Position numbers and translations under genes: made by a program. A DNA stretch of 64,000 bases. Origin: Escherichia coli. GTDB taxonomy: Bacteria; Pseudomonadota; Gammaproteobacteria; Enterobacterales; Enterobacteriaceae. Under the pieces are notes generated by a model. It did no database searches, was not told the origin of the DNA, and saw only the letters and a list, made by a program, of their open reading frames with translations. The stretch's first letter is position 1. The number at the start of each line of letters is the position of its first letter. The stretch is from the NCBI RefSeq assembly GCF_013122565.1, contig NZ_CP053258.1. One strand, written 5' to 3'. Positions 34,892-56,216 of the stretch are shown here, piece by piece.

Positions 34892-35216
34892 CACGATGTC
34901 TGAATCCTTGCCAAAAGTACTGCTGGCACTATACCAGAGAATGAACATACTGGATTGCTCCAGTGTTGTGAATGAACGGTAACGCAATAAAACATATTTA
35001 CTGCAATTCTTTGGCCGGTTCTTTTACGTACATGCCGCTTAAACGGAGAGTATCGTCGATAAAAATCCAATAAAACGTTCATGTCAAAAGTAAGAAACAG
35101 ACAAAGCAAAGGCCGCTCACGATATAGCCAGATAAATGACGGGGATCAATTGGCTTACCCGCGATAAAATGTTACCATTCTGTTGCTTTTATGTATAAGA
35201 ACAGGTAAGCCCTACC

Positions 35217-36617
35217 ATGCCACATTCCTACGATTACGATGCCATAGTAATAGGTTCCGGCCCCGGCGGCGAAGGCGCTGCAATGGGCCTGGTTAAGCAA
35301 GGTGCGCGCGTCGCAGTTATCGAGCGTTATCAAAATGTTGGCGGCGGTTGCACCCACTGGGGCACCATCCCGTCGAAAGCTCTCCGTCACGCCGTCAGCC
35401 GCATTATAGAATTCAATCAAAACCCACTATACAGCGACCATTCCCGACTGCTCCGCTCTTCTTTTGCCGATATCCTTAACCATGCCGATAACGTGATTAA
35501 TCAACAAACGCGCATGCGTCAGGGATTTTACGAACGTAATCACTGTGAAATATTGCAGGGGAACGCTCGCTTTGTTGACGAGCATACGTTGGCGCTGGAT
35601 TGCCCGGACGGCAGCGTTGAAACACTAACCGCTGAAAAATTTGTTATTGCCTGCGGCTCTCGTCCATATCATCCAACAGATGTTGATTTCACCCATCCAC
35701 GCATTTACGACAGCGACTCAATTCTCAGCATGCACCACGAACCGCGCCATGTACTTATCTATGGTGCTGGAGTGATCGGCTGTGAATATGCGTCGATCTT
35801 CCGCGGTATGGATGTAAAAGTGGATCTGATCAACACCCGCGATCGCCTGCTGGCATTTCTCGATCAAGAGATGTCAGATTCTCTCTCCTATCACTTCTGG
35901 AACAGTGGCGTAGTGATTCGTCACAACGAAGAGTACGAGAAGATCGAAGGCTGTGACGACGGTGTGATCATGCATCTGAAGTCGGGTAAAAAACTGAAAG
36001 CTGACTGCCTGCTCTATGCCAACGGTCGCACCGGTAATACTGATTCGCTGGCGTTACAGAACATTGGGCTGGAAACTGACAGTCGCGGACAGCTGAAGGT
36101 CAACAGCATGTATCAGACCGCACAGCCGCACGTTTACGCGGTGGGCGACGTGATTGGTTATCCGAGCCTGGCATCAGCGGCCTATGACCAGGGGCGCATT
36201 GCCGCGCAGGCGCTGGTGAAAGGTGAAGCCACCGCACATCTGATTGAAGATATCCCTACCGGCATTTACACCATCCCGGAAATCAGCTCTGTGGGCAAAA
36301 CCGAACAGCAGCTGACCGCGATGAAAGTGCCATATGAAGTGGGCCGCGCCCAGTTCAAACATCTGGCACGTGCACAAATCGTCGGCATGAACGTGGGCAC
36401 GCTGAAAATTTTGTTCCATCGGGAAACAAAAGAGATTCTGGGCATTCACTGCTTTGGCGAGCGCGCTGCCGAAATTATTCATATCGGTCAGGCGATTATG
36501 GAACAGAAAGGTGGCGGCAACACTATTGAGTACTTCGTCAACACCACCTTTAACTACCCGACGATGGCGGAAGCCTATCGGGTAGCTGCGTTAAACGGTT
36601 TAAACCGCCTGTTTTAA
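35217..36617 (+). CDS. sthA: soluble pyridine nucleotide transhydrogenase SthA (UdhA)
   Basis: 466 aa [28 protein letters not shown]... (FAD-binding GxGxxG). Confidence 0.96.
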
Positions 36618-37517
36618 CACTTTATCGAAATGGCCATCCATTCTTGCGCGGATGGCCTCTGCCAGCTGCTCATAGCGGCTGCGCAGCGGTGAGCCAGGAC
36701 GATAAACCAGGCCAATAGTGCGGCGTGGTTCCGGCTTAATGCACGGCAGATAAACAACCCCATCGCGTTTGCGTTCCGGCGGCACAGCCAGCGCTGGCAA
36801 TAAAGTGATCCCGCTACCTGCCGCCACCATGTTGCGCAGCGTCTCCAGGCTGGTCGCGCGGAAGTGTGTATCTTCATCCGCCCCGGCTTCAAAACAGAAA
36901 CCCATTGCCTGATCGCGCAAACAGTGACCATCTTCCAGCATCAGCAGTTTTTCCCCTGCCAGATCGGCCATCGGTACGCATTCGCGGTTCGCCCACGGGT
37001 GATCTTCATAGATAGCCAGCAACATTGGCTCATCAAACAACGGCACTTCAATGAATGCTTCGCTCTCTTTCACCAGCGCGAGGATCACGCAATCGAGTTT
37101 GCCGCTGTCCAGTTGCGCCAGTAACTGGTGGGTCTGTGCTTCATGCAGATACATTTCCAGCTTTGGAAAGGTCTGGTGCAGCATCGGGATAATATGCGGT
37201 AGCAGGTACGGTCCAACCGTGGGAATCAAACCAATATGCAGCGGTCCGGACATCGTCTCGCCCTGCTGGCTTGCCATCTCTTTAAGGACTTTCACCTCAC
37301 GCAGCACGGTACGCGCCTGATCCACCAGCAGCATTCCCGCCTGGGTGAACAACACTTTACGGCTGGTCCGCTCCAGCAACATCACGCCCAGCTCATCTTC
37401 CAGCTTACGAATTTGCCCGCTAAGCGTCGGCTGGCTAACGTGGCAGGAATCTGCTGCACGCCGAAAATGGCGGTGTTCAGCCAATGCCACCAGGTACTCA
37501 AGATCACGAATATTCAT
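36600..37517 (-). CDS. oxyR: LysR-family oxidative-stress regulator OxyR
   Basis: 305 aa from [40 protein letters not shown]; convergent with and overlapping the sthA 3' end. Confidence 0.97.
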
Positions 37518-37612
37518 TATCCATCCTCCATCGCCACGATAGTTCATGGCGATAGGTAGAATAGCAATGAACGATTATCCCTATCAAGCATTCTGACTGA
37601 TAATTGCTCACA
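37518..37612. promoter_or_regulatory. oxyR-oxyS divergent promoter region with OxyR operator
   Basis: 95-bp interval between the oxyR start codon and the oxyS 5' end; position-based call. Confidence 0.6.
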
Positions 37613-37721
37613 GAAACGGAGCGGCACCTCTTTTAACCCTTGAAGTCACTGCCCGTTTCGAGAGTTTCTCAACTCGAATAACTAAAGCCAACGTGAACTT
37701 TTGCGGATCTCCAGGATCCGC
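37613..37721 (+). ncRNA. oxyS: OxyS small regulatory RNA
   Basis: Sequence GAAACGGAGCGGCACCTCTTTTAACCCTTGAAGTCACTGCCCGTTTCGAGAGTTTCTCAACTCGAATAACTAAAGCCAACGTGAACTTTTGCGGATCTCCAGGATCCGC matches remembered oxyS. Confidence 0.93.
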
Positions 37722-37730
37722 TTTTTTTTT
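37702..37730 (+). terminator. oxyS intrinsic terminator
   Basis: Stem gcggatc-tccag-gatccgc followed by T10. Confidence 0.9.
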
Positions 37731-37770
37731 TATTCTACAGGCCCACAACAAGAGAGCCTGATAGTAACGG

Positions 37771-39054
37771 TTACTCAATGCGATCTTTGACAATAAAGAA
37801 GTAACACAACGCCCCGGTGAACGTCACACAGGCCGCGATAACCAACGCCAGATTAAACGAGTGTGTGGTATCCACTACCCAACCGGTTACGATCGGAGCA
37901 AAGGAAGCAAAAACAAAACTGCCAAAGTTTTGAATCCCGGCGATGGAAGCCACTTTTGTTTCTGACACCATCACCTGCACCAGTCCCCATGCAGACGTTC
38001 CCGCGAAATGCACGCAGAATAGCGCCATTGAGATAAACGCTACCGCCTGAGCTGGCGAGGAAGATTGCACGACCAGCAACGTGCCTAATGCCGACATCAT
38101 CAAACCGCAGACAATAGCCGTTTTACGCGTCTTCGCCAGGTCGTAGCCTTTTTTCGCCAGTCGATCGACAACAATACCGTTTACCCACATCCCGACTGCC
38201 GCCGCGAGGAAAGGAATCGCCGCCACCCAACCGGTTTTCGCCAGACTGAAACCTTGCTCGGCCTGCAAATAACCGGGTAACCACGCGATGTAGAGCCAAC
38301 CGGTATAATTGACGCCAGAGAAACCTAAAATCATCCCCCAGGTTGTCCGATGCTTAAACAGCGCCAGCCACTCGCTAAATTGCAGCTGTGGACGCGGTTT
38401 AACCGGCGCGGAGAGATACGTCCGTTCTTCGTCAGTCAGGACAAACTGCGCCCGGTTGCGATACCACGCGTACCAACAGATCCCAACCAGAATCCCCGCC
38501 ACGCCGATGATGACGAACATCGTCCGCCAGCCCCATGCCAGCTGCATCAATACAAGAGCAGGAGGCGCGATAGCCTGACCGATAACGGTAGATGAGTTAA
38601 AAATCCCCAGCGCCGTGCCGCGTTCTTTTTGTGCATACCAGTCGGTGATCGACTTTACTCCCGCAGGCATAAATGGCGCTTCGCCAATACCCAGACCGAT
38701 ACGCATTAAAATAAAGTGGCTAAAAGAATTAACCATTCCTGTTAATGCCTGCATTAATGACCAGAATATTAAGCCTGCGCCTAAAACTATTCGTGGGCCA
38801 AAGCGGTCTAGCAAAATACCGGAAGGAAGTTGTGAAAAACCATAAGACAGAGAAAATGCAGAAAGCAAAAAACCAAACTCTGTCGCTGATAATCCTAACT
38901 CGCCACGAATCGCTTCGCCTGCCACGCTCAATGACGAACGGTCGAGAAAATTAACGATCCCCGCCATAAATAATAAAACCAGGGTCACTGTCTGAATACG
39001 ACGAATCCGTTGCGGTTTATTACCCGCAACACTGGTTGACACATCAACGTCCAT
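37771..39054 (-). CDS. MFS transporter, anion:cation symporter (ACS) family, putative sugar-acid (hexonate/hexuronate) permease
   Basis: 427 aa ORF, about 12 predicted TM segments, ACS-like N-terminus (LVLLFMAGIVNFLDRSSLSVAG, LDRFGPR); AAGGAG RBS 7 nt upstream of ATG; not present at this locus in K-12. Confidence 0.85.
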   Translation of the reverse strand: MDVDVSTSVAGNKPQRIRRIQTVTLVLLFMAGIVNFLDRSSLSVAGEAIRGELGLSATEFGFLLSAFSLSYGFSQLPSGILLDRFGPRIVLGAGLIFWSLMQALTGMVNSFSHFILMRIGLGIGEAPFMPAGVKSITDWYAQKERGTALGIFNSSTVIGQAIAPPALVLMQLAWGWRTMFVIIGVAGILVGICWYAWYRNRAQFVLTDEERTYLSAPVKPRPQLQFSEWLALFKHRTTWGMILGFSGVNYTGWLYIAWLPGYLQAEQGFSLAKTGWVAAIPFLAAAVGMWVNGIVVDRLAKKGYDLAKTRKTAIVCGLMMSALGTLLVVQSSSPAQAVAFISMALFCVHFAGTSAWGLVQVMVSETKVASIAGIQNFGSFVFASFAPIVTGWVVDTTHSFNLALVIAACVTFTGALCYFFIVKDRIE

Positions 39055-39120
39055 TTTTAGCTCCTTGAGCGGAATTAATCGATTTGATGACTATTCAGAA
39101 AATAATTAAGCGAACCGTTA

Positions 39121-40335
39121 TTACCAGTTCCACAATGTGCCATCTTCCAGTCGTGCGACGGGGAGATACGCCGGGTCATACGGATATTTCGCCGCCAGTT
39201 TCTCATCGAAAGAAATACCCAGCCCCGGTTCATCGCCTGGGTGCATATAACCTTCATCGAAGCGCCAGCTGTGCGGGAAGACTTCAAGCATTTGTTCGGA
39301 ATAGCCCATGTACTCCTGAACGCCAAAGTTTGGCACCCAGAGGTCAAAATGCAGCGCCGCCGCATGACAAACAGGCGATAAATCTGAAGGGCCATGCGAA
39401 CCGGTACGTACCTGATAAAGCGATGCAAAATCGGCAATCCGTCGCATCCCGGTAATGCCGCCTGCATGGGTAATCGTCGTGCGAATATAGTCAATCAGCT
39501 GCTCTTCGATTAACTGCTTGCAGTCCCAGATACTGTTAAACACTTCACCGACCGCAATCGGCGTCACGGTGTGCTGGCGAATCAGACGGAAACATTCCTG
39601 GTTCTCGGCAGGCGTAGGATCTTCCATCCAGAACAGGCGGTAATCCTCAATGCTCTTCCCAAAGCGCGCCGCTTCGATGGGGGTCAGGCGATGGTGCATG
39701 TCATGCAACAGATGTTCGTTAAAACCGAACTTATTACGCACCGCTTCAAATAACTTCGGCGTAAAATCGAGATACTTTTCTGAAGACCACAACTGCTCTT
39801 CTGGCCACAGGCCTTTGGTTGCCGGTTCATACGCCAGTCCTTTGCCCTTCGCCAGGCCATAAGTGGTTTGCATACCCGGTACACCACACTGCACACGAAT
39901 CGCCTTAAAGCCCATGTGCTGGTGCTTTGCATAGTCTTCAAGGACTTCATCAATCGTACGCCCGGTGGTGTGGCAATAAACCATCACGCCTTCACGAGAA
40001 GCACCACCAAGCAGTTGATACAATGGCATATTTGCCGCTTTAGCTTTGATATCCCACAACGCCATATCAATGGCAGAAATGGCTGACATCGTGACGGGGC
40101 CACGTCGCCAGTAAGCACCTTTATAAAAGAATTGCCAGATATCTTCGATACGGCTGGCATCGCGGCCAATTAGTTGTGGACAAAGATGATCTTTCAGATA
40201 AGAAGCGACCGACAATTCGCGACCATTTAACGTGGCATCTCCTAATCCACAAAGTCCGCTTTCAGTGGTTATTTTAAGCGTAACGAAATTACGCCCTGGG
40301 CAAGTAACAAAAACATCCGCAGCAATAATTTTCAT
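39121..40335 (-). CDS. enolase-superfamily dehydratase, ManD/RspA-like (putative D-mannonate or related acid-sugar dehydratase)
   Basis: 405 aa from [25 protein letters not shown]... ending ...[22 protein letters not shown]; closely resembles remembered RspA; AGGAG RBS; ORF track extends 20 codons upstream. Confidence 0.85.
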
Positions 40336-40744
40336 TATTGCAATCTCCTGTGTTGTAAATAGACGTTTCAAACTTAATTTTACGCCTACTACCATACAAG
40401 AGAGAAAAAGCGATTATTCAACCGTGATCACATTAAAAACAAAAATTTCCATCGAGGAGAAAAAATACCCTCAAAAACCACCTGAATAATTAACCATTAT
40501 CGTTAAAACAACACGTTAAATAATCACATAACAAACTCCATTAATCATTAAAAATGGGCACAGCAATAGAAAATAATTATATTCAATTAATTAAAACATG
40601 CATTGGTTGATGTATTGAAAATATGATTTTTATGGGGGGGAGTGAAGGTAAAGAAGACACAATAATAAAAAGGAATATGACAAATAATGGTTCTGGTTGG
40701 ACGTTAAATTTAAGGTCACCAGAATGATGACAAATTTCTGCCTG

Positions 40745-40795
40745 ATGCGGCGTAAACGCCTTATCCGCCTACGAAGTGTCGCACTTTGTAGGCGT
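40745..40795. repeat. REP (repetitive extragenic palindrome) element downstream of argH
   Basis: gcctgatgcggcgtaaacgccttatccgcctac... typical REP consensus. Confidence 0.7.
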
Positions 40796-40800
40796 GGTAA

Positions 40801-40821
40801 ACTCCCCATTTTCAGGGGAGC
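40801..40821 (-). terminator. argH terminator-like hairpin
   Basis: ctcccc-attttca-ggggag inverted repeat immediately after argH stop; weak U-tract. Confidence 0.5.
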
Positions 40822-40833
40822 AATATAAACAAA

Positions 40834-42207
40834 TTACTCTAACCGAGCCTGCGCAAAAGCAATTGCCTGCGCCACCTGCTGCGGTGAGACGCCGCCTTTT
40901 GCCGCACGCTTGTCGAGGCACGATTGTAGCGACAGAATCGGATAGACATCTTCGCCAATCACCTGACTGAATTTCTGCAACTCACTGAGTGGCAGATCTT
41001 CCAGCGGTTTGCCCTGACGAATGGCTTCCACCACCGCTTCACCCACAATATGGTGCGCCTCGCGGAAAGGTACGCCTTTCGCCACCAGGTAATCCGCCAG
41101 TTCGGTGGCGTTGGCGTAACCCTGCTGAGCCGCTTCCTGGCAACGTGGACGTTTCACCTGAATGCCGTCCAGCACCAGCGCCGCCATATGCAGGCAGTCC
41201 AGCCAAGTATCGAGCGCGTCGAACAGACCTTCTTTGTCTTCCTGCATATCTTTGTTGTAAGCCAGCGGCAAACCTTTCAGCGTCATCATCATGCCAGTTA
41301 ACGCGCCCTGCACCCGACCACATTTACCGCGAATCAGCTCCAGCGCATCCGGGTTTTTCTTCTGCGGCATTAATGATGAACCGGAAGTCACGCGGTCAGA
41401 AAGCTCCACAAACCCCGCTTCGCCGGTGTTAAAGAAAATCAGATCTTCAGCAAAACGCGACAGATGCACCATGCCGATAGCGGCAGCAGAAAGCAGTTCC
41501 AGCACGTGGTCACGGTCAGAAACGCTGTCGAGACTGTTACGGGTCGCTGAAGCAAAACCCAGCCAGCCAGCTAACTGTTCACGGTCGATTTCATAAGCCG
41601 TTCCCGCCAGCGCGCCACAGCCTAACGGACTGACATCCAGACGCTTAAGCGCATCCTGCAAACGGCTTTCATCACGCGCCAGCATCTCAACATAGGCCAG
41701 GCACCAGTGCGCGAACGTCACCGGCTGGGCGCGTTGCAGGTGAGTGTAACCTGGCATGACCGCGTCCTGATTGTTTTGTGCGGTTTCCACCAGCGCCGAT
41801 TGCAGCTGCCGGTTAGCCGTCAGCAACTCGCCAACGGTATCTTTGCACCACAGTTTCAGGTCTGTCGCTACCTGATCATTACGACTACGCCCGGTATGCA
41901 GCTTTTTGCCTAACTGGCCCACTTTGTCGATCAGTTTGCCTTCCACCCAGCTATGAATATCTTCGGCGTCGCTTTCGAGGATTTGTTGTGGCCTGGCGCG
42001 AACATCTTCCAGCAGCACGTTCAGCGCCTCTTCCAGTTGCGCCTGCTCTTCTGCGGTTAACACGCCGACCGTTACCAGGGCTTTGGACCAGGCCACAGAG
42101 CCAACAATATCCTGCTCCGCCAGACGGTAATCAAAGCGCAGTGAGTCGTTGAATTGTTTGAACCGTTGATCTGCTGCCTGGGTAAAACGCCCGCCCCAAA
42201 GTGCCAT
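40834..42207 (-). CDS. argH: argininosuccinate lyase
   Basis: 457 aa [40 protein letters not shown]... Confidence 0.98.
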
Positions 42208-42267
42208 AACTCTGTTTCCTTATTTTGAAATTCAATGCCGGAAAGCTGCGCCTCCGGCTAACAAAAC

Positions 42268-43044
42268 TTAAGCTAAAATCCGCGTACCCATCGGCATACC
42301 GTTAAACAGTGCCGGAAGCTGTTCCGCATGACGCCAGGAGGCGATATCTACCGGACGGCCCAACGTGCGCGCAGCATCCAGCGCCGCGTTCACTTTCACT
42401 ATCATGCCGTCAGTAATAATACCCTGCTCAATCAGTTGTTCTGCTTTCGCGGCGGTCATTTCGGCAATACGTTGCCCTTTGCCGTCGAGAATGCCACTGA
42501 CGTCGGAGAGCAAAATCAGATCCGCGCCCAGCGTTGCCGCCAGCGCCGTTGCCGCCTGATCGGCATTGACATTCATCAGTTGCCCTTCGTCTGTTACGCC
42601 AATGGAGCTGACCACCGGCAGATAACCGTTCTCCAGCAAGGTGTTGATAAGCTTAGGCGAACCTGGCTGCGCCAGTCCAACATGGCCTAACTCTTCATCA
42701 AGCTGGGTCACTTTGACGCTGTCGCCGTCACCGAGAAACAAACCTACGGCCGCAATCTGATGTTTCTTCGCCCATGCCAGCAGGGTTTTATTTGCCGTTC
42801 CCGCCAGTGCTCCGGTGATAATGTCTATCTGATCCGCAGGCGTCACCCGCAGGCCGTTTTTCTTTTTCACTGGCAGATTCAGCCCTTTCATCAGCTCATC
42901 CACCACGCAACCGCCGCCGTGGACAATCACCAGCGGACGCTGATGTGACTCACGATAATTCACCAGTGCGCTAAACAGACGTTCCAGCGCCTCTTCACTA
43001 TCCAGCAGTACGCCACCCAGTTTGATAATTAATGGATTCATCAT
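42268..43044 (-). CDS. argB: acetylglutamate kinase
   Basis: 258 aa from [20 protein letters not shown]; ORF track extends 11 codons upstream. Confidence 0.96.
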
Positions 43045-43051
43045 TGCACCC

Positions 43052-44056
43052 TTAAATAAGAGACTGCGTTTCCGCATAGCCGAAACGAATATTGGCGCAC
43101 TGTACCGCTTGTGCCGCCGCGCCTTTCAGTAAGTTGTCTTCGGTCGCCACAATAATCAGATGCTCACCCTGAACGGCAAACCCGATATCGCAAAATGGCA
43201 GCCCAACGACATTTTTCAGCGCCGGAACGCCTTTGTCATACAGACGCACCAGCGGTTTATGGGCATACGCCTGCTGTAATGCCTGCGCCACTTGCGCCTG
43301 GCTCACGCCCGGTTTCAGGCGGCAGGTAATGGTTTCGAGAATGCCGCGCGGGAAATTGCCCAGATGCGGGGTGAAGATAACGTCAGCACCGAGGTGTGTG
43401 GCGATCTCTGGTTGATGGCGATGGGTAAAGACGCCATACGGTTGCAGGCTAACTTCACAAAAACTATTTGAAATCGCTGCCTTACGTCCTGCACCGCTCA
43501 CGCCGCTGGTGGCGTTGATCACTGGCCACTGATTGAGGTCAAGAAGATCGGCATCAATCAACGGTTTCAGCGCCAACTGTGCTGCCGTCGGATAACAGCC
43601 TGGTACCGCAATCAAATTCGCTTCTTTTAATTTATTACCGCACCACTCCGCCAGACCGTAGGCTGCCTGTTCCAGCAGTTCCGGGTATTGATGGGTAAAG
43701 CCGTAATATTTTTCATAGAAGGTGGCGTCGTTAACACGAAACGCGCCGGAAAGGTCGAACACCACGCAGCCCGCTTCAAGAAACTGCGGCGCTAAATCGT
43801 GGCTAACTTCATGGGCAGTGGCGAGAAACACCACGTCCACCCCTGGGCTAAACTCGCTGATATCCGACATCGGCTGCAACGGCAGATCAACGATGCCTTT
43901 TAGCTGCGGATGCAAATCGGAGATTAACTTTCCCGCATCATTGCTTTGCGCTGAAACAGTCAAAGCGGTTATGTTCATATGCGGATGGCGATTTACATAG
44001 GTCACTAGCTCTGCGCCAGCGTAGCCGCTGGCACCCACAATCAGCGTATTCAACAT
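43052..44056 (-). CDS. argC: N-acetyl-gamma-glutamyl-phosphate reductase
   Basis: 334 aa [30 protein letters not shown]... Confidence 0.97.
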
Positions 44057-44139
44057 CGGGGCTATTCACCTTCTTATGTCTGGTTGCCAGGTTAAACGTA
44101 AAACATTCACCTTACGGCTGGTGGGTTTTATTACGCTCA

Positions 44140-44190
44140 ACGTTAGTGTATTTTTATTCATAAATAATGCATGAATATTGATACTATCAT
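44140..44190. promoter_or_regulatory. ArgR operator (ARG boxes) in the divergent argE / argCBH control region
   Basis: A/T-rich tattcat / tgaatat half-site motifs between the divergent starts. Confidence 0.6.
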
Positions 44191-44209
44191 GACCAGAGGT
44201 GTGTCAACA

Positions 44210-45361
44210 ATGAAAAACAAATTACCGCCATTTATCGAGATTTACCGTGCTCTGATTGCCACACCTTCAATAAGCGCCACGGAAGAGGCACTCGATCAAA
44301 GCAATGCAGATTTAATCACTCTGCTGGCGGACTGGTTTAAAGATTTAGGCTTCAATGTGGAAGTGCAGCCTGTGCCAGGAACTCGCAACAAATTTAATAT
44401 GCTGGCCAGTTGCGGACAGGGGGCTGGCGGCTTGTTGCTGGCGGGGCATACCGATACGGTGCCATTTGATGACGGTCGCTGGACGCGCGATCCGTTTACA
44501 CTGACGGAGCATGACGGCAAGCTTTACGGCTTAGGCACCGCCGACATGAAAGGCTTTTTTGCGTTTATCCTCGATGCGCTACGCGATGTCGACGTTACGA
44601 AGCTTGCAAAACCGCTCTACATTCTGGCGACTGCCGATGAAGAAACCAGTATGGCCGGAGCGCGTTATTTTGCCGAAACTACCGCCCTGCGCCCGGATTG
44701 CGCCATCATTGGCGAACCGACGTCACTACAACCGGTACGCGCACATAAAGGTCATATCTCTAACGCCATCCGTATTCAGGGCCAGTCGGGGCACTCCAGC
44801 GATCCAGCACGCGGAGTTAACGCTATCGAACTAATGCACGACGCCATCGGGCATATTTTGCAATTGCGCGATAACCTGAAAGAACGTTATCACTACGAAG
44901 CGTTTACCGTGCCATACCCTACGCTCAACCTCGGGCATATTCACGGTGGCGACGCTTCTAACCGTATTTGCGCTTGCTGTGAGTTGCATATGGATATTCG
45001 TCCGCTGCCTGGCATGACACTCAATGAACTTAATGGTTTGCTCAACGATGCATTGGCTCCGGTGAGCGAACGCTGGCCGGGTCGTCTGACGGTCGACGAG
45101 CTGCATCCGCCGATCCCTGGCTATGAATGCCCACCGAATCATCAACTGGTTGAAGTGGTTGAGAAATTGCTCGGAGCAAAAACCGAAGTGGTGAATTACT
45201 GTACCGAAGCGCCGTTTATTCAAACGTTATGCCCGACGCTGGTTCTGGGGCCTGGCTCAATTAATCAGGCTCATCAGCCTGATGAATATCTGGAAACACG
45301 GTTTATCAAGCCCACCCGCGAACTGATAACCCAGGTAATTCACCATTTTTGCTGGCATTAA
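44210..45361 (+). CDS. argE: acetylornithine deacetylase
   Basis: 383 aa from [23 protein letters not shown]; divergent from argC. Confidence 0.96.
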
Positions 45362-45364
45362 AAC

Positions 45365-45465
45365 GTAGGCCGGATAAGGCGCTCGCGCCGCATCCGGCAC
45401 TGTTGCCAAACGCCAGCGCTGCAATAATGTCGGATGCGATGCTTGCGCATCTTATCCGACCTACG
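45365..45465. repeat. REP/BIME element pair between argE and ppc
   Basis: Inverted REP copies gtaggccggataaggcgctcgcgccgcatccggcac and gtcggatgcgatgcttgcgcatcttatccgacctac. Confidence 0.8.
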
Positions 45466-45712
45466 CCTTTGGTGTTAATTGAGGCGATTTTTTAACATTC
45501 CCATAAGTTACGCTTATTTAAAGCGTCGTGAATTTAATGGCGTAAATTCCTGCTATTTATTCGTTTGCTGAAGCGATTTCGCAGCATTTGACGTCACCGC
45601 TTTTACGTGGCTTTATAAAAGACAACGAAAAGCAAAGCCCGAGCATATTCGCGCCAATGCGACGTGAAGGATACAGGGCTATCAAACGATAAGATGGGGT
45701 GTCTGGGGTAAT

Positions 45713-48364
45713 ATGAACGAACAATATTCCGCATTGCGTAGTAATGTCAGTATGCTCGGCAAAGTGCTGGGAGAAACCATCAAGGATGCGTTGGGAGAAC
45801 ACATTCTTGAACGCGTAGAAACTATCCGTAAGTTGTCCAAATCTTCACGCGCTGGCAATGATGCTAACCGCCAGGAGTTGCTCACCACCTTACAAAATTT
45901 GTCGAACGACGAGCTGCTGCCCGTTGCGCGTGCGTTTAGTCAGTTCCTGAACCTGGCCAACACCGCCGAGCAATACCACAGCATTTCGCCGAAAGGCGAA
46001 GCTGCCAGCAACCCGGAAGTGATCGCCCGCACCCTGCGTAAACTGAAAAACCAGCCGGAACTGAGCGAAGACACCATCAAAAAAGCAGTGGAATCGCTGT
46101 CGCTGGAACTGGTCCTCACGGCTCACCCAACCGAAATTACCCGTCGTACACTGATCCACAAAATGGTGGAAGTGAACGCCTGCTTAAAACAGCTCGATAA
46201 CAAAGATATCGCTGACTACGAACACAACCAGCTGATGCGTCGCCTGCGCCAGTTGATCGCCCAGTCATGGCATACCGATGAAATCCGTAAGCTGCGTCCA
46301 AGCCCGGTAGATGAAGCCAAATGGGGCTTTGCCGTAGTAGAAAACAGCCTGTGGCAAGGCGTACCGAATTACCTGCGCGAACTGAACGAACAACTGGAAG
46401 AGAACCTCGGCTACAAACTGCCCGTCGAATTTGTTCCGGTGCGTTTTACCTCGTGGATGGGCGGTGACCGCGACGGCAACCCAAACGTCACTGCCGATAT
46501 CACCCGCCACGTCCTGCTACTCAGCCGCTGGAAAGCCACCGATCTGTTCCTGAAAGATATTCAGGTTCTGGTTTCTGAACTGTCGATGGTTGAAGCGACC
46601 CCTGAACTGCTGGCGCTGGTTGGCGAAGAAGGTGCCGCAGAACCGTATCGCTATCTGATGAAAAACCTGCGTTCTCGCCTGATGGCGACACAGGCATGGC
46701 TGGAAGCGCGCCTGAAAGGCGAAGAACTGCCAAAACCAGAAGGCCTGCTGACACAAAACGAAGAACTGTGGGAACCGCTCTACGCTTGCTACCAGTCACT
46801 TCAGGCGTGTGGCATGGGTATTATCGCCAATGGCGATCTGCTCGACACCCTGCGCCGCGTGAAATGTTTCGGCGTACCGCTGGTCCGTATTGATATCCGT
46901 CAGGAGAGCACACGTCATACCGAAGCGCTGGGCGAGCTGACCCGCTACCTCGGTATCGGCGACTACGAAAGCTGGTCAGAGGCCGACAAACAGGCGTTCC
47001 TGATCCGCGAACTGAACTCCAAACGTCCGCTTCTGCCGCGCAACTGGCAACCAAGCGCCGAAACGCGCGAAGTGCTCGATACCTGCCAGGTGATTGCCGA
47101 AGCGCCGCAAGGCTCCATTGCCGCCTACGTGATCTCGATGGCGAAAACGCCGTCCGACGTGCTGGCTGTCCACCTGCTGCTGAAAGAAGCGGGTATCGGG
47201 TTTGCAATGCCGGTTGCTCCGCTGTTTGAAACCCTCGATGACCTGAACAACGCCAACGATGTCATGACCCAGCTGCTCAATATCGACTGGTATCGCGGCC
47301 TGATTCAGGGCAAACAGATGGTGATGATTGGCTATTCCGACTCAGCAAAAGATGCGGGCGTGATGGCAGCGTCCTGGGCGCAATATCAGGCACAGGATGC
47401 ATTAATCAAAACCTGCGAAAAAGCGGGTATTGAGCTGACGTTGTTCCACGGTCGCGGCGGTTCCATTGGTCGTGGCGGCGCACCTGCTCATGCGGCGCTG
47501 CTGTCACAACCGCCAGGAAGCCTGAAAGGTGGCCTGCGCGTGACTGAACAGGGCGAGATGATCCGCTTTAAATATGGTCTGCCAGAAATCACCGTCAGCA
47601 GCCTGTCGCTGTACACCGGGGCGATTCTGGAAGCCAACCTGCTGCCACCACCTGAGCCGAAAGAGAGCTGGCGTCGCATTATGGATGAACTGTCAGTCAT
47701 CTCCTGCGATCTCTACCGTGGCTACGTACGTGAAAACAAAGATTTTGTGCCTTACTTCCGCTCCGCTACGCCGGAACAAGAACTGGGCAAACTGCCGTTG
47801 GGTTCACGTCCGGCGAAACGTCGCCCAACCGGCGGCGTCGAGTCACTACGCGCCATTCCGTGGATCTTCGCCTGGACGCAAAACCGCCTGATGCTCCCCG
47901 CCTGGCTGGGTGCAGGAACAGCGCTGCAAAAAGTGGTCGAAGACGGCAAACAGAGCGAGCTGGAGGCTATGTGCCGCGATTGGCCATTCTTCTCGACGCG
48001 TCTCGGCATGCTGGAGATGGTCTTCGCCAAAGCAGATCTGTGGCTAGCGGAATACTATGACCAACGCCTGGTAGACAAAGCACTGTGGCCGTTAGGTAAA
48101 GAGTTACGCAATCTGCAAGAAGAAGACATCAAAGTGGTGCTGGCGATTGCCAACGATTCCCATCTGATGGCCGATCTGCCGTGGATTGCAGAGTCTATTC
48201 AGCTACGGAATATTTACACCGACCCGCTGAACGTATTGCAGGCCGAGTTGCTGCACCGCTCCCGCCAGGCAGAAAAAGAAGGCCAGGAACCGGATCCTCG
48301 CGTCGAACAAGCGTTAATGGTCACTATTGCCGGGATTGCGGCAGGTATGCGTAATACCGGCTAA
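45713..48364 (+). CDS. ppc: phosphoenolpyruvate carboxylase
   Basis: 883 aa [39 protein letters not shown]... ending ...MRNTG. Confidence 0.99.
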
Positions 48365-48546
48365 TCTTCCTCTTCTGCAAACCCTCGTGCTTTTGCGCGA
48401 GGGTTTTCTGAAATACTTCTGTTCTAACACCCTCGTTTTCAATATATTTCTGTCTGCATTTTATTCAAATTCTGAATATACCTTCAGATATCCTTAAGGA
48501 ATTGTCGTTACATTCGGCGATATTTTTTTCAAGACAGGTTCTTACT

Positions 48547-50280
48547 ATGCATTCCACAGAAGTCCAGGCTAAACCCCTTTTTAGCTGGAAAGCCCTGGGT
48601 TGGGCACTGCTCTACTTTTGGTTTTTCTCTACTCTGCTACAGGCCATTATTTACATCAGTGGTTATAGTGGCACTAACGGCATTCGCGACTCGCTGTTAT
48701 TCAGTTCGCTGTGGTTGATCCCGGTATTTCTCTTTCCGAAGCGGATTAAAATCATTGCCGCAGTGATCGGCGTGGTGCTATGGGCGGCCTCTCTGGCGGC
48801 GCTGTGCTACTACGTCATCTACGGTCAGGAGTTCTCGCAGAGCGTTCTGTTTGTGATGTTTGAAACCAACACCAACGAAGCCAGCGAGTATTTAAGCCAG
48901 TATTTCAGCCTGAAAATTGTGCTTATCGCGCTGGCCTATACGGCGGTGGCTGTTCTGCTGTGGACACGCCTGCGCCCGGTCTATATTCCAAAGCCGTGGC
49001 GTTATGTTGTCTCTTTTGCCCTGCTTTATGGCTTGATTCTGCATCCGATCGCCATGAATACGTTTATCAAAAACAAGCCGTTTGAGAAAACGTTGGATAA
49101 CCTGGCCTCGCGTATGGAGCCTGCCGCACCGTGGCAATTCCTGACCGGCTATTATCAGTATCGTCAGCAACTAAACTCGCTAACAAAGCTACTGAATGAA
49201 AATAATGCCTTGCCGCCGCTGGCTAATTTCAAAGATGAATCGGGTAACGAACCGCGCACCTTAGTGCTGGTGATTGGCGAGTCAACCCAGCGTGGACGCA
49301 TGAGTCTGTACGGTTATCCGCGTGAAACCACGCCGGAGCTGGATGCGCTGCATAAAACCGATCCGAATCTAACCGTGTTTAATAACGTAGTTACGTCTCG
49401 TCCGTACACCATTGAAATCCTGCAACAGGCGCTGACCTTTGCCAATGAAAAGAACCCGGATCTGTATCTGACGCAGCCGTCGCTGATGAACATGATGAAA
49501 CAGGCGGGTTATAAAACCTTCTGGATCACCAACCAGCAGACGATGACCGCCCGCAATACCATGCTGACGGTATTTTCGCGCCAGACCGACAAGCAGTACT
49601 ACATGAACCAGCAACGTACGCAGAGTGCTCGTGAATACGACACTAACGTGCTGAAGCCGTTCCAGGAAGTGCTGAAGGACCCTGCGCCGAAGAAACTGAT
49701 CATTGTTCATCTGCTGGGTACGCATATCAAATACAAATACCGCTACCCGGAAAATCAGGGCAAGTTTGATGGCAATACCGATCATGTTCCGCCGGGATTA
49801 AACGCGGAAGAGCTGGAGTCATATAACGATTATGACAACGCTAACCTGTATAACGATCATGTGGTTGCCAGCCTGATTAAAGACTTTAAAGCAGCAGACC
49901 CGAACGGTTTCCTGGTTTACTTCTCTGACCACGGTGAAGAGGTTTACGACACGCCGCCTCATAAAACCCAGGGGCGTAATGAGGACAACCCGACGCGTCA
50001 TATGTACACCATTCCGTTCCTGCTGTGGACGTCGGAAAAATGGCAAGCGACTCATCCGCGTGATTTCTCGCAGGATGTTGATCGTAAATACAGCCTGGCG
50101 GAACTGATCCACACCTGGTCAGATTTGGCGGGCTTATCTTACGACGGTTACGATCCAACCCGTTCAGTGGTGAATCCGCAGTTCAAAGAAACTACCCGCT
50201 GGATTGGTAACCCGTATAAGAAAAACGCACTGATCGATTACGACACGCTGCCGTATGGCGATCAGGTGGGTAATCAGTAA
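48547..50280 (+). CDS. eptC: phosphoethanolamine transferase EptC (YijP)
   Basis: 577 aa from MHSTEVQAKPLFSWKALGW; N-terminal TM segments plus sulfatase-like domain. Confidence 0.93.
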   Translation: MHSTEVQAKPLFSWKALGWALLYFWFFSTLLQAIIYISGYSGTNGIRDSLLFSSLWLIPVFLFPKRIKIIAAVIGVVLWAASLAALCYYVIYGQEFSQSVLFVMFETNTNEASEYLSQYFSLKIVLIALAYTAVAVLLWTRLRPVYIPKPWRYVVSFALLYGLILHPIAMNTFIKNKPFEKTLDNLASRMEPAAPWQFLTGYYQYRQQLNSLTKLLNENNALPPLANFKDESGNEPRTLVLVIGESTQRGRMSLYGYPRETTPELDALHKTDPNLTVFNNVVTSRPYTIEILQQALTFANEKNPDLYLTQPSLMNMMKQAGYKTFWITNQQTMTARNTMLTVFSRQTDKQYYMNQQRTQSAREYDTNVLKPFQEVLKDPAPKKLIIVHLLGTHIKYKYRYPENQGKFDGNTDHVPPGLNAEELESYNDYDNANLYNDHVVASLIKDFKAADPNGFLVYFSDHGEEVYDTPPHKTQGRNEDNPTRHMYTIPFLLWTSEKWQATHPRDFSQDVDRKYSLAELIHTWSDLAGLSYDGYDPTRSVVNPQFKETTRWIGNPYKKNALIDYDTLPYGDQVGNQ

Positions 50281-50353
50281 ATGACCTATGTATCGCGTCT
50301 GGCGCTATTTGCCGGATGCGATACTGGCACAATGTTTACATCTCACTTCCATC

Positions 50354-50381
50354 AGGCCACACTTTTCAGGTGGCCTTTTTT
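50354..50381 (+). terminator. eptC terminator
   Basis: aggccac-loop-gtggcct stem followed by T6. Confidence 0.7.
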
Positions 50382-50428
50382 CATAATGCCAGTTACTGTT
50401 TTCCCGTCTACATACCTAAGGGAATAAC

Positions 50429-51280
50429 ATGTATCACGACGTCAGCTATCTGCTCTCCCGCCTGATCAACGGCCCGCTGTCCCTGCGCCAGATTTACTTT
50501 GCAAGCAGTAACGGCCCGGTGCCCGATCTTGCGTATCAGGTCGATTTTCCACGACTGGAAATTGTGCTGGAAGGTGAGTTTGTTGATACCGGCGCTGGAG
50601 CAACGTTAGTTCCCGGCGATGTGCTGTACGTTCCCGCTGGTGGCTGGAATTTTCCACAATGGAAAACACCCGCGACCACCTTTAGCGTGCTGTTTGGCAA
50701 ACAGCAACTCGGCTTCAGCGTCGTGCAATGGGATGGCAAACAATATCAAAATCTGGCGAAGCAACACGTCGCCCGACGCGGCCCACGCATAGGTTCTTTT
50801 CTGCTACAAACGCTCAATGAAATGCAAATGCAGTCGCAGGAGCAGCAAACGGCAAGGCTTATCGTCGCCAGCCTGCTTAGCCACTGCCGCGATTTGCTTG
50901 GCAGCCAAATCCAGACCGCCTCACGCAGCCAGGCACTGTTCGAAGCTATTCGTGATTATATCGACGAACGCTACGCCTCCGCGCTTACCCGCGAATCTGT
51001 CGCACAGGCATTCTATATTTCACCAAACTATCTCTCGCACCTGTTTCAAAAAACGGGGGCCATTGGTTTTAACGAATACCTGAATCACACGCGACTGGAG
51101 CACGCCAAGACGTTATTGAAAGGCTATGACCTGAAGGTAAAAGAAGTGGCGCACGCCTGCGGCTTTGTCGACAGCAACTACTTCTGCCGTCTGTTTCGTA
51201 AAAACACCGAACGCTCGCCGTCGGAATATCGCCGGCAGTACCACAGCCAACTGACAGAAAAACCGACTACTCCAGAATAA
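50429..51280 (+). CDS. yijO: AraC-family transcriptional regulator YijO
   Basis: 283 aa ORF with C-terminal AraC HTH. Confidence 0.9.
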   Translation: MYHDVSYLLSRLINGPLSLRQIYFASSNGPVPDLAYQVDFPRLEIVLEGEFVDTGAGATLVPGDVLYVPAGGWNFPQWKTPATTFSVLFGKQQLGFSVVQWDGKQYQNLAKQHVARRGPRIGSFLLQTLNEMQMQSQEQQTARLIVASLLSHCRDLLGSQIQTASRSQALFEAIRDYIDERYASALTRESVAQAFYISPNYLSHLFQKTGAIGFNEYLNHTRLEHAKTLLKGYDLKVKEVAHACGFVDSNYFCRLFRKNTERSPSEYRRQYHSQLTEKPTTPE

Positions 51281-51608
51281 GATGGGTTTGCTGCGGCGCA
51301 GAAAGCACTTTGCGCACCGCGCTCATTACCCGCTGCGGCTCACGCAGGAATGCGTAGATGCTGCATTGCACATAGCGGCAATGTTCAAATCGCTCGGCAC
51401 CGGCAAGCTCGATATCCGTAATTAACAGCGCAACATCCGCCCGGCGGATATCCTCGTCCGCTAAACGATTCTCCGTTCCCAGCGCGCCCTGAGTTTCAAT
51501 GCTGATGACCCACTTCTCTAACTGGCACAACTTTTCCAGCCGTTCCGCCGCCATATAAGTATGCGCCACGCCGCTTACGCAGGCGGTTACTGCCACCAGG
51601 TATGCCAT
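51267..51608 (-). CDS. frwD: PTS fructose-like IIB component FrwD
   Basis: 113 aa from MAYLVAVTACVSGVAHTYMAAERLEK (IIB Cys motif). Confidence 0.9.
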   Translation of the reverse strand: MAYLVAVTACVSGVAHTYMAAERLEKLCQLEKWVISIETQGALGTENRLADEDIRRADVALLITDIELAGAERFEHCRYVQCSIYAFLREPQRVMSAVRKVLSAPQQTHLILE

Positions 51609-51609
51609 T

Positions 51610-52488
51610 TTAACCTCCCACGGTAACCTGAAATCCGGCCCGTTCTGCCATTTCGCGCATCGTTGCCACATCAGCTGACGACGGCGCAGGCACCTCTTTC
51701 ATCGACCATGTTTTCCCCAGCAGGCGGTATTTCGGTTCGCCGTACTGATGAAACGGTAACAGATGGATCTGCCTGATATTCAGCGGGATCAGCACGTCCA
51801 GCGCCTGCTGCATATTCTCCCGGCTGAGCGTGAAACCAGGGATCAGCGGTAAACGCGGGATCACGTTGACACCCTCACTCACCAGCAAACGCAGATTCTC
51901 CACCACGCGTGGCAGGTTCATCTTCACCACATCCCGCGCCTGAGTCGCATCCATGATTTTTAAATCGAACAACACTTCATCGCACAATTTCGCCAGTGGT
52001 AACAGCTTGCTTGCTGGCGCGTCTCCGGCAGTTTCAATGGCGCATGACACCCCCCACAGCCGCAGTCGCTGTAAAAAACGGGTAGCAAACTCCGCCTGCA
52101 TTAACACTTCGCCGCCAGAAAGCGTGACGCCGCCGCCGGACGTGCGAAAGAAAATGTCATCTTTCATCACTTCCCGTTCCAGCGCGTCAAGGCTGATATC
52201 GCGACCAATCCGTTCAAACGCCCCGGAGGGGCATTCATCCGCATCACGCAAACATTTCGCACAGTGCAGACATTTCGCCTCTCTGCGTACCGTCTGGATT
52301 TTGCCGGAGATCGACTCCGGATTAGCACACCACGGGCAAAGATGCGGACAGCCTTTAAAAAAGACCACCGTACGAATGCCCTCACCGTCATTCAGTGAAT
52401 AACGCTGAATGTTGAAAATGCGCGCCACATCATTGCGGCGCGTTTCCACAACGTTACAGCTGATGCGCTGTCCGGCGGATGATGTCAT
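51610..52488 (-). CDS. pflC: glycyl-radical enzyme activating protein PflC
   Basis: 292 aa from MTSSAGQRIS... with radical-SAM CPHLCPWC and ferredoxin-like Cys clusters. Confidence 0.93.
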   Translation of the reverse strand: MTSSAGQRISCNVVETRRNDVARIFNIQRYSLNDGEGIRTVVFFKGCPHLCPWCANPESISGKIQTVRREAKCLHCAKCLRDADECPSGAFERIGRDISLDALEREVMKDDIFFRTSGGGVTLSGGEVLMQAEFATRFLQRLRLWGVSCAIETAGDAPASKLLPLAKLCDEVLFDLKIMDATQARDVVKMNLPRVVENLRLLVSEGVNVIPRLPLIPGFTLSRENMQQALDVLIPLNIRQIHLLPFHQYGEPKYRLLGKTWSMKEVPAPSSADVATMREMAERAGFQVTVGG

Positions 52489-54751: not shown

Positions 54752-54801
54752 GAGGAACTCCTGTGGGAAAGCGAACCCGCCCTTGCGAGCGGGAGAAGAA
54801 C

Positions 54802-55122
54802 TTAAGCGGTTTGCGCCAGGTGAGCTTCAATTTTGCTCATAATGGCGTCAGCGCGTTTTACCGCGTCGCTGATGTTGACGCGCACAATGGTCTTGCCAGC
54901 AAAACGCTCTTCAAACTTGATGCCGATATCTTTGGTCAGAATCACCATATCGGCGCTCGCCACATCTTCCGCAGTCAGTTCGTTTTCCAGACCAATCGAG
55001 CCCTGGGTTTCTACTTTCACTTCCCAGCCTTTCGCTTTCGCGGCACTTTCCAGCGCCTCTGCCGCCATATAAGTATGGGCAACACCAGATGGACATGCGG
55101 TTACTGCAATAATTTTCGTCAT
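54802..55122 (-). CDS. frwB: PTS fructose-like IIB component FrwB
   Basis: 106 aa ORF MTKIIAVTACPSGVAHTYMAAEALE... Confidence 0.93.
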   Translation of the reverse strand: MTKIIAVTACPSGVAHTYMAAEALESAAKAKGWEVKVETQGSIGLENELTAEDVASADMVILTKDIGIKFEERFAGKTIVRVNISDAVKRADAIMSKIEAHLAQTA

Positions 55123-55136
55123 GGCTCGTTCCTCAA

Positions 55137-56216
55137 TTAATTAATTTCAAAATCCAAATCCAGGTCGTCTTCTTTTTCATCAGTAGAAGATCCATTTTTA
55201 CGCGCCAGACTTTTCAGCACGTTCACGCAGACTGCCGTCACAACCGCCCCGACAGCCACTGCTGCGATATAACCCAACTTACCTTCAACCACCGGCAGCA
55301 CAATCAGACCACCCCAGCCGGCATAGCACTGCGCACCGACCAGCGCCGCAGTTACTGCACCACAAACTGAACCGACCATGATGGAAGGAATAACACGCAG
55401 CGGATCGGCAGCGGCGAAAGGAATCGCCCCTTCAGTAACGCCAACGCACCCCATCACCAGCGCCGCTTTACCAGTTTCGCGCTCTTCTGCGGAGAAATTT
55501 TTACGACCAATCAGCGTCGCCAGCCCCATCCCCAGCGGCGGGATACAAATACCCACGGCAGCAATGGCCACCACGGTATAAACACCCTGAGCAACGCAAA
55601 TCAGCATGAAGGCATAGGCCACTTTGTTAACCGGACCGCCCATATCGAACGCCAGCATCAGACCCATGATCACCGCCAGCATAACAATGCTGCCCTGCTG
55701 CATCCCCTGAAGCCACTGAGTCAGGCTGTTGGTCAACGCCCCTACAGGCTCGCCCAAGCCCCACATCATGATGCCTGCGGTAATCAGTGTGCCGACGATA
55801 GGAATGATGAAGATAGGCATCACCGAGCGCAGAACTTTATGCACCGGAATTTTCTTCAGGTAATGCACCACGATGCCGCCGATAATCCCGGCGATCAGTG
55901 CACCAAAGAAGCCCGCACCAAAGCTGTTACCAACCCAGGCACCGATAGCGCACGGAGCCAGCGCAGAACGCTCTGCAATGGAGTAACCAATGTAAGCGGC
56001 GAGGAAAGGCACCATCAGCGTCAAACCCGCAACGCCGATATCAAACAGTTTTTTCAAATTCGGATCGGCTACGGCATTCGGCACTGCGCCTTTGCCATAC
56101 AACATGACGGAAACCGCCAGCAAAATACCGCCCGATACCACGAAGGGAATCATGTGTGAAACGCCCGTCATTAAGTGCTGACGGGTATTTTTCAGGATCT
56201 GCACCAACTCATTCAT
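55137..56216 (-). CDS. frwC: PTS fructose-like IIC component FrwC
   Basis: 359 aa polytopic membrane ORF from MNELVQILKNTRQHLMTGVSHMIPFVV; upstream in-frame ATG at 56237. Confidence 0.9.
   Translation of the reverse strand: MNELVQILKNTRQHLMTGVSHMIPFVVSGGILLAVSVMLYGKGAVPNAVADPNLKKLFDIGVAGLTLMVPFLAAYIGYSIAERSALAPCAIGAWVGNSFGAGFFGALIAGIIGGIVVHYLKKIPVHKVLRSVMPIFIIPIVGTLITAGIMMWGLGEPVGALTNSLTQWLQGMQQGSIVMLAVIMGLMLAFDMGGPVNKVAYAFMLICVAQGVYTVVAIAAVGICIPPLGMGLATLIGRKNFSAEERETGKAALVMGCVGVTEGAIPFAAADPLRVIPSIMVGSVCGAVTAALVGAQCYAGWGGLIVLPVVEGKLGYIAAVAVGAVVTAVCVNVLKSLARKNGSSTDEKEDDLDLDFEIN

Follow-up and report, generated by a model that had tools for sequence, protein, structure and literature searches.

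In a 64,000-nt stretch of Escherichia coli DNA (contig NZ_CP053258.1 of assembly GCF_013122565.1; the whole stretch is called the window, and coordinates are positions in it), the interval between argH and the small RNA (sRNA) gene oxyS carries an allele-specific segment with two minus-strand genes, manD, encoding a predicted sugar-acid dehydratase, and a gene for a major facilitator superfamily (MFS) permease. We consider it likely that the pair forms an operon for the uptake and dehydration of a sugar acid, that it is a satellite of the rsp cluster, and that the segment is old and was replaced in other strains by a 54-bp empty allele. The locus is a real but ordinary accessory catabolic operon of known families, with nothing surprising in kind about it, and the Prokaryotic Genome Annotation Pipeline (PGAP) has already named its genes 'manD: D-mannonate dehydratase ManD' and 'MFS transporter'. 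New here are the link to rsp together with its promoter, a degenerate RspR box, a trans-species age combined with purifying selection, a single 54-bp empty allele, and the presence in strain CFT073 of a second ManD with a dedicated anion:cation symporter (ACS) permease. A literature search on this argH/oxyS locus found nothing specific.

Anatomy of the segment and its two predicted products

The segment was delimited by alignment with an empty-allele genome. Its left junction (about 37730) falls inside the T-run of the oxyS terminator (37722–37731), and its right junction (40833/40834) directly abuts the argH stop codon. The features of the region are as follows.

37730/37732–40833, minus strand: allele-specific segment, about 3.1 kb (alignment with the empty allele)
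39121–40335, minus strand: manD, 404 aa, first operon gene (open reading frame, start corrected)
39055–39120, minus strand: intercistronic spacer, 66 nt, with an AAGGAG Shine-Dalgarno sequence 6 nt before the MFS ATG
37771–39054, minus strand: ACS/SLC17-type MFS permease, 427 aa, second operon gene (open reading frame)
40336–40732, no strand assigned: AT-rich leader and upstream spacer, 30.5% GC
40389–40432, minus strand: rsp-type promoter core (homology to the rspA leader)
40740–40794, plus strand: repetitive extragenic palindromic (REP) element, one unit and an adjoining short hairpin (REP core match)
40802–40820, minus strand: hairpin CUCCCCUGAAAAUGGGGAG, then UUUACC, just after the argH stop (fold)
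40834–42207, minus strand: argH, right boundary of the variable segment (open reading frame)
37613–37722, plus strand: oxyS sRNA gene, left boundary of the variable segment (Rfam RF00035, full length)
36600–37517, minus strand: oxyR (open reading frame)
35217–36617, plus strand: sthA (open reading frame)

An earlier sequence-only reading of the window had described about 3.1 kb between oxyS and argH, a two-gene minus-strand operon with strong Shine-Dalgarno sequences, an AT-rich region upstream of it, a REP element on the argH side, and no integrase, transposase or regulator. All of these features were confirmed, with small coordinate corrections. The Shine-Dalgarno sequence reads AGGAG for manD and AAGGAG for the MFS gene, and the AT-rich spacer stands out from the 52.1% GC of the whole window. 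The REP core GATGCGGCGTAAACGCCTTATC at 40744–40765 is an exact consensus match; three REP core sites were found in the window against 0 expected by chance, the two others lying on the minus strand at 45373–45394 and 60931–60952. The open reading frame list of the interval contained no integrase, transposase, regulator or tRNA. The oxyS gene was identified as Rfam RF00035 at 139.5 bits (gathering score 75), and the spacer 40336–40732 matched no Rfam family.

The manD start was set at the ATG at 40335 (MKIIAAD…), from which the product aligns end to end with RspA and ManD from residue 1. A longer open reading frame, 39121–40395, was rejected because the RspA/ManD alignment fits the ATG at 40335.

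Profile and structure searches supported the assignment of the 404-aa product to the ManD/RspA-type dehydratases of the enolase superfamily, as first proposed. It scored 732.2 bits on the NCBIfam equivalog NF043051 (cut-off 550), with residues 1–404 on profile positions 1–403, and 807 bits on PRK15072; in filled-allele loci, the 404-aa product encoded at this site carries MR_MLE_N and MR_MLE_C (PF02746 and PF13378). The exact protein is on record as WP_171460012.1 / QJU26026.1, 'D-mannonate dehydratase ManD'. The best solved structures were 4il2 ('RspA', 900 bits) and 4e4f ('mannonate dehydratase', 895 bits), both aligned without gaps, and identity to E. coli RspA was 91.8% over all 404 residues. 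Residues R147, Y159, D212, H214, E238, E264 and H314 occur in this protein and show no variation across 17 orthologues and paralogues. D212, E238, E264, Y159, R147 and H214 are identical in the 4il2 and 4e4f alignments, and every catalytic residue is shared with E. coli RspA (4IL2). The roles of these residues are reportedly (Rakus et al. 2007) those of a base dyad (Y159/R147), metal ligands and a His acid catalyst, the equivalents in NaManD being D210/E236/E262 as metal ligands, Y159/R147 as dyad and H212 as acid. All the ManD residues checked were present in the enzyme.

The high-efficiency ManDs of Novosphingobium aromaticivorans (2QJJ) and Caulobacter (3VCN/4GME) belong to the same subgroup and fold, align over the full length at 611–615 bits and, in the numbering of Rakus et al. 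(2007), have the same catalytic residues, but they stand further off than the enterobacterial RspA group (about 900 bits). The enterobacterial ManD group is reported to be the low-efficiency class. Wichelecki et al. 2014 reportedly described enterobacterial RspA-type ManDs, including CFT073 RspA (4IL2), as 'low-efficiency', with no physiological role identified.

The permease is predicted to be an H+:sugar-acid symporter of the ACS/SLC17 type. Its best solved relative is DgoT (6e9n), with E = 8e-58; residues 13–424 align with 24–440 of the DgoT chain, and only 33% of the 405 aligned positions are identical. Like DgoT and the other K-12 ACS transporters, it belongs to this family, aligns end to end and keeps the proton sites and the carboxylate anchor: D38, R39, Y71 and E125 correspond to DgoT D46, R47, Y79 and E133, and W356 and N376 to W373 and N393. 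The dgo operon presumably likewise pairs a transporter, DgoT, with an enolase-superfamily acid-sugar dehydratase, DgoD. The work on DgoT residue roles places the TM1 Asp-Arg pair and the TM4 Glu (D46, R47 and E133) in H+ coupling and carboxylate binding (PMC6532931). The first description of the protein as an anion:cation symporter with 12 transmembrane segments stood in its family part; the number 12 is drawn from the DgoT alignment, and a crude hydropathy scan gave 10 clear peaks. Public names for the permease are all the generic 'MFS transporter', apart from one 'L-galactonate transporter' label in Cedecea. Five E. coli ACS transporters (DgoT, LgoT, ExuT, GarP and GudP) have been characterised in a recent survey, which omits this permease and does not mention mannonate or gulonate (bioRxiv 10.64898/2026.05.20.726482). 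The permease would be the sixth ACS sugar-acid transporter of E. coli; unlike the others it is absent from K-12, and so lies outside that survey.

Kinship with the rsp cluster and the shared promoter

The relation of the pair and of its promoter to the rsp cluster had been overlooked by the sequence-only reading. When one genome per species (GTDB representatives) was scanned for the permease, an orthologue (82–89% identity) was found adjacent or close to a ManD in 13 loci from nine other enterobacterial genera, including Enterobacter, Pluralibacter, Klebsiella, Raoultella, Lelliottia, Atlantibacter, Siccibacter and a second Citrobacter. The setting there is the region ynfE–ynfC–speG–ynfB … rspB–ydfJ–ydfI … ydfH–ydfG. 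Neighbours confirmed with NCBIfam were an RspB-type Zn oxidoreductase (NF007489), a fructuronate-reductase-family enzyme (NF011611), a glucuronate isomerase (NF002794), a metabolite:H+ symporter (YdfJ-type), a GPH transporter and YdfG; the YdfH-like regulator, whose open reading frame gave no NCBIfam match at E ≤ 1e-30, was assigned from position and size only. Permease and ManD are adjacent in all rsp-type loci but that of Atlantibacter, where they lie about 5 kb apart, and in Lelliottia, Siccibacter and Enterobacter sp. kpr-6 manD precedes the permease gene, as in the window. The rsp locus of E. coli itself, ynfB–ynfA–rspA–rspB, has no such permease.

The clusters of Lelliottia, Siccibacter, Enterobacter, Klebsiella, Raoultella, Pluralibacter and Atlantibacter thus share with the argH locus a closely similar ManD (91–94%) and permease, and the same promoter stands ahead of each cluster's first gene. 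They differ in that the pair is embedded in ynfB…rspB–ydfJ–ydfI…ydfH–ydfG, with or without uxaC and the GPH transporter, whereas here it stands alone at an unrelated site, with neither dehydrogenases nor a regulator; remnants of ynfA, ynfB or rspB were not found in the spacer or tail. E. coli rspAB differs from the window's pair in its site (ynfA/rspB as against argH/oxyS), in the gene that follows (rspB as against the ACS permease gene) and in distribution, the argH locus being present in only 34% of E. coli genomes. In relation to the rsp cluster (rspA–rspB–ydfJ–ydfI), sequence comparison shows the manD–permease pair and its promoter to be a paralogous satellite. The rsp-locus ManDs of the nine other genera are nearer to RspA (93–95%) than this ManD is, so that the gene here does not stem from a recent duplication within E. 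coli. Six differences were consistent between four argH-locus and 13 rsp-locus copies: V4I, H61S, R137K, M161L, K369E and E375S.

Three further loci of the permease were noted. In Rouxiella badensis (locus L018, 6992–10502), a UxuR-like GntR regulator is followed by a 71%-identical permease and then by UxuA in the place of ManD. Shimwellia pseudoproteus (locus L015, 8001–9284) has a lone permease with no ManD within 8 kb, and the rsp-type promoter core TGTGATC…CTTGTATGGTAG is kept. An enterobacterial rsp-type locus with a permease 88% identical to that of the window was found under the name 'Chryseobacterium sp. 18061' (L009, CACSKA010000003.1); it is nearly the same as the locus of 'Citrobacter sp. 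18056' (L021), and probably the Chryseobacterium label is wrong or the assembly is mixed.

The manD leader is homologous to the rspA leader; counted from the ATG, TGTGATC lies at −97 and CTTGTATGGTAG at −62. Both elements recur in the same arrangement (TGTGATC, about 27 nt, CTTGTATGGTAG, about 60 nt before the first gene) in E. coli rspA and 13 other loci, whether manD or the permease gene comes first, and the promoter core is invariant in 11 Escherichia copies of the argH locus. Since a sigma-70 consensus scan of the minus strand upstream of manD found nothing, the promoter was placed by homology to the mapped rspA promoter. Transcription of rspA starts 30 bp upstream of its ATG, and RspR (YdfH) represses the rspA operon and protects 31 bp centred on ATACnnGTAT (PMC8249747). 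Relative to that start, TTGTAT would be the −35 element and TGTGA would be centred near −61, a class I CRP position; TGTGATC at 40426–40432 is accordingly listed as a candidate CRP half-site.

CTTGTATGGTAG contains TCTCTTGTAT (40394–40403), a degenerate RspR box overlapping the putative −35. At the argH locus, this box is TCTCTTGTAT in each of the 11 Escherichia copies, with the left half-site TCTC instead of the ATAC of rspA. The perfect box ATACTTGTAT was found in E. coli rspA and in four ManD-first rsp operons, and a Citrobacter copy at the argH locus reads AATCTTGTAT at this position. A search for ATACnnGTAT with up to 1 mismatch gave no match in 40336–40833 and a window-wide count not above chance. 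Because the left half of the operator is lost here, RspR repression is predicted to be weakened or lost, leaving catabolite control, and we infer an operon that is catabolite-controlled and at most weakly repressed by RspR. Its 30% GC leader may be silenced by H-NS.

Proposed function and the choice of substrate

As we picture it, the ACS-family permease would import a C6 sugar acid (hexonate) together with protons, and ManD, a Mg2+-dependent enzyme, would turn D-mannonate into 2-keto-3-deoxy-D-gluconate (KDG). KdgK and Eda, encoded outside the window, would take KDG to pyruvate and glyceraldehyde-3-phosphate, which is a known E. coli pathway. The function suggested by the sequence-only reading, uptake and dehydration of an acid sugar (mannonate, gluconate or a related hexonate), was a reasonable guess. 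The pair would have been derived from the rsp cluster with the promoter core kept and the left RspR half lost, and the segment would have been replaced in about two thirds of E. coli by a single 54-bp allele spread by homologous recombination.

Judged from its gene neighbourhoods, the most likely imported substrate is D-mannonate, because the recurring partner of the permease is a mannonate dehydratase, either ManD or, in Rouxiella, UxuA. L-gulonate or a hexuronate, made into mannonate by enzymes encoded elsewhere, are the alternatives, because the larger clusters hold dehydrogenases and an isomerase. It is possible, if rather unlikely, that the permease imports L-gulonate, L-idonate, D-gluconate or a hexuronate, with ManD acting after RspB/YdfI or UxaC/UxuB enzymes, or as a D-gluconate dehydratase; some members of the ManD subgroup presumably do dehydrate D-gluconate. 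Such a choice is consistent with the clustering of the permease elsewhere with an RspB-type dehydrogenase, a fructuronate reductase and a glucuronate isomerase, with the established pathway from L-gulonate through fructuronate and mannonate to KDG (PMC5788505), and with the membership of the hexuronate carrier ExuT in the same ACS family (bioRxiv 10.64898/2026.05.20.726482). However, here and in Rouxiella a mannonate dehydratase is the sole companion of the permease, which makes direct mannonate uptake the simplest self-contained reading, and the dehydrogenase-bearing clusters have a second (YdfJ-type) or third (GPH) transporter for the upstream substrates.

Uptake and dehydration of D-mannonate would overlap with an existing route. 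UxuA is the mannonate dehydratase of the Ashwell pathway and part of the core exu/uxu regulon; ManD is expected to carry out the same conversion of D-mannonate to KDG, although the fold and family of UxuA are unrelated to those of ManD. The permease occurs in pathogens and commensals, for example CFT073 and IAI1. CFT073 was reportedly a model strain in the search for a role of the 'low-efficiency' ManDs, and its second ManD-family gene with a permease could help explain why RspA alone showed no role.

Age, selection and the empty allele

When 37600–40950 was compared by megablast with 5,426 complete E. coli genomes, the filled state, defined as at least 80% query coverage, was found in 1,860 (34%). 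The remaining genomes (66%) match only about 240 bp of the flanks, and in each case sampled these matches extend over 300–301 bp. K-12 MG1655 is empty: argH ends at 4,158,223 and oxyS starts at 4,158,278, leaving a gap of 54 bp, in agreement with the spacing of within about 60 bp given for K-12 by the sequence-only reading. The two genes are therefore accessory, as had been proposed, and not core. Individual strains were spot-checked for variation within phylogroups. Among these, CFT073 (B2, ST73) and IAI1 (B1) are filled, and EC958 (B2, ST131), an O121 strain (B1), an O157:H7 strain (E) and K-12 MG1655 (A) are empty, so that B1 and B2 each hold both states.

The same gene order, argH–manD–MFS–oxyR, was found in Escherichia sp. 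MOD1-EC7003, Escherichia sp. E1V33 and E. whittamii. All three loci are collinear with the window across the flanks and the segment in a single high-scoring segment pair with the same junctions, and at the nucleotide level the segment is just as similar as its flanks. The spacer 40336–40732 is 89–97% identical in the other Escherichia copies; in Citrobacter its conservation is limited to the promoter-proximal part. Citrobacter sp. R56 has an MFS gene (92% amino acid identity) between argH and oxyR/oxyS, and the 793 bp ahead of it hold the same promoter motif and a manD remnant in which residues 1–32 are fused to residues 371–403, that is, a decayed orthologous copy at the same site.

Synonymous divergence (dS) and the ratio of nonsynonymous to synonymous divergence (dN/dS) against the three other Escherichia species were calculated by the Nei–Gojobori method, with sthA, oxyR, argH and argB as flank genes. 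For manD and the MFS gene, dS was 0.25–0.36, with the one exception of manD against E1V33, as compared with 0.18–0.39 for the flanks, and dN/dS was 0.012–0.038 as compared with 0.006–0.032. Where present, the segment is under strong purifying selection. In the exceptional comparison (39121–40335 against 6720–7934 of the E1V33 locus, L004), dS was 0.125 between neighbours at 0.26–0.31, which suggests an interspecies recombination tract within the gene. The best reading of these comparisons dates the filled state no later than the split of these Escherichia species.

These rates bear on the doubtful view that the operon is a cryptic relic, normally silent and with no current role, persisting by drift and on its way out. 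Several observations are consistent with such a relic. The closest characterised relatives are reportedly of low efficiency and without phenotype, and the same verdict was reportedly reached for other RspA-type ManDs of this class; the locus has no dedicated regulator and has an AT-rich leader that we take to be typical of H-NS-silenced DNA; and the segment is missing from 66% of genomes. The manD gene is internally deleted in Citrobacter sp. R56, and at least three independent in-frame permease deletions occur in E. coli (window 38227–38489 and 38161–38244; locus L035, 3169–4176). One of these, a 276-bp deletion, removes 92 permease residues in a DSM 101139-type lineage, and other E. coli database proteins lack 28 or 39 residues. 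However, the low dN/dS of both genes at dS ≈ 0.25–0.36, as low as in sthA, oxyR, argH and argB, cannot be squared with neutrality over the long term, the promoter core does not vary among the 11 Escherichia copies, and two probes inside the permease gene were kept in 1,806 and 1,801 of the 1,860 filled genomes (about 97%), the losses not being assignable to individual deletions. The deletions, the Citrobacter remnant and the empty genomes taken together indicate repeated loss, and the low dN/dS indicates selection where the operon is intact. PGAP still names the permease deletion variants 'MFS transporter'.

The empty allele was examined in the sampled loci. Its 54-bp filler was the same in seven of seven, apart from 1–2 SNPs (single-nucleotide polymorphisms), and showed only chance-level 7–15-mers in common with the segment or the rest of the window. 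The empty allele is no clean target site: it carries these 54 bp of its own, which the segment does not share. Filled and empty loci were intermixed in the neighbour-joining trees, both that of argB–argH and that of oxyR–sthA, and sister pairs of opposite state were among them. The segment is better described as an old two-allele polymorphism that has been reshuffled by homologous recombination through the conserved flanks. On a species set without E. albertii, E. fergusonii and Salmonella, the filled state is probably ancestral, and the empty allele probably arose once.

The sequence-only reading had called the segment an insertion. That part of it was not supported and probably has the polarity reversed, given the same site in three Escherichia species with dS and dN/dS equal to those of the flanks, the decayed Citrobacter copy and the filler of the empty allele. 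None of the marks of a genomic island (mobility genes, tRNA, repeats, deviant composition, younger age) was found: flanking direct or inverted repeats were absent, with only short chance matches inside genes, and the GC content of the two genes was 0.50–0.51 against 0.52 for the window. A recent horizontal acquisition, by which some E. coli lineages gained a small islet by insertion between argH and oxyS, could account for the absence from K-12 and 66% of genomes, the AT-rich upstream region, the REP element at one edge and the slightly lower GC content at third codon positions (0.52–0.54 against 0.57–0.61 in the flanks), but it is largely refuted, and we regard it as very improbable, in view of the above and of the mixing of states within B1 and B2 and on near-identical flank haplotypes.

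We thus favour a selected sugar-acid operon of rsp descent in an old, recombining segment. Several points weigh against this view. This ManD is 91.8% identical to RspA, which is reportedly a low-efficiency enzyme, and its substrate is a prediction; as E. coli has UxuA already, a second mannonate dehydratase looks redundant. The hydroxyl-binding pocket of the permease is unlike that of DgoT, with T156, F245 and G352 in place of the hydroxyl-contacting Q164, Q264 and S370. The permease scored 275.8 bits, under the cut-off of 395, on TIGR00893 (residues 31–422), its best-scoring family and the only ACS subfamily model matched. Control by CRP and RspR is predicted from motifs, and the in-frame permease deletions in circulation and the two thirds of strains lacking the operon are signs of dispensability. 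The polarity is likewise a deduction, and the 54-bp empty allele could also be ancient.

The argH–oxyS interval illustrates how an intergenic site that looks core can harbour an old presence/absence polymorphism, one kept and shuffled by recombination and not made by insertion. It calls for caution when 'accessory' calls in pangenomes are taken as gene gains.

The two alleles end argH differently. In the filled allele, the hairpin at 40802–40820 (fold −15.8 kcal/mol, z = −2.8) is a candidate argH terminator; in the empty allele, argH ends in a hairpin-plus-U6 terminator, GCCUGGC…GCCGGGC then U6, inside the 54-bp filler. At the other end, the permease stop (37771) and the convergent oxyS gene are 48 bp apart (region 37690–37775). 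No minus-strand intrinsic terminator was recognised between them, the fold past the permease stop giving a hairpin without a U-tract and then the reverse face of the oxyS terminator. For this reason, operon transcription might conceivably run antisense through oxyS into the same-strand oxyR, an idea to which we give very little credence. If true, it would couple sugar-acid/cAMP status to the OxyS/OxyR stress circuit in a third of E. coli, in a way impossible in K-12.

A second two-gene presence/absence polymorphism was observed about 2.5 kb away, in the sthA–fabR spacer (window ~35033–35097). The pair consists of an M20 aminoacylase and a 'citrate-proton symporter'-type MFS protein. It is present in CFT073, EC958, several sampled loci and Escherichia sp. 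E1V33 (L036, 25897–28422; L042, 11579–14104; L004, ~11956–14656) and is lacking in the window, in IAI1 and in K-12; the sthA–fabR and manD polymorphisms occur in all four combinations.

In IAI39 (NC_011750.1; L037/L040), the argH–oxyR region is absent from the two positions examined on the basis of CFT073/K-12 synteny. The DNA upstream of thiC/rrn runs into mnmG–rbs there, with IS4 and IS3-family (IS1397) elements nearby, which suggests a large rearrangement. The window itself shares at most 98.1% identity, across 20 kb of core genes (41000–61000), with any of the 5,426 complete RefSeq E. coli genomes, and its lineage within the species seems to be one that has been sampled only sparsely.

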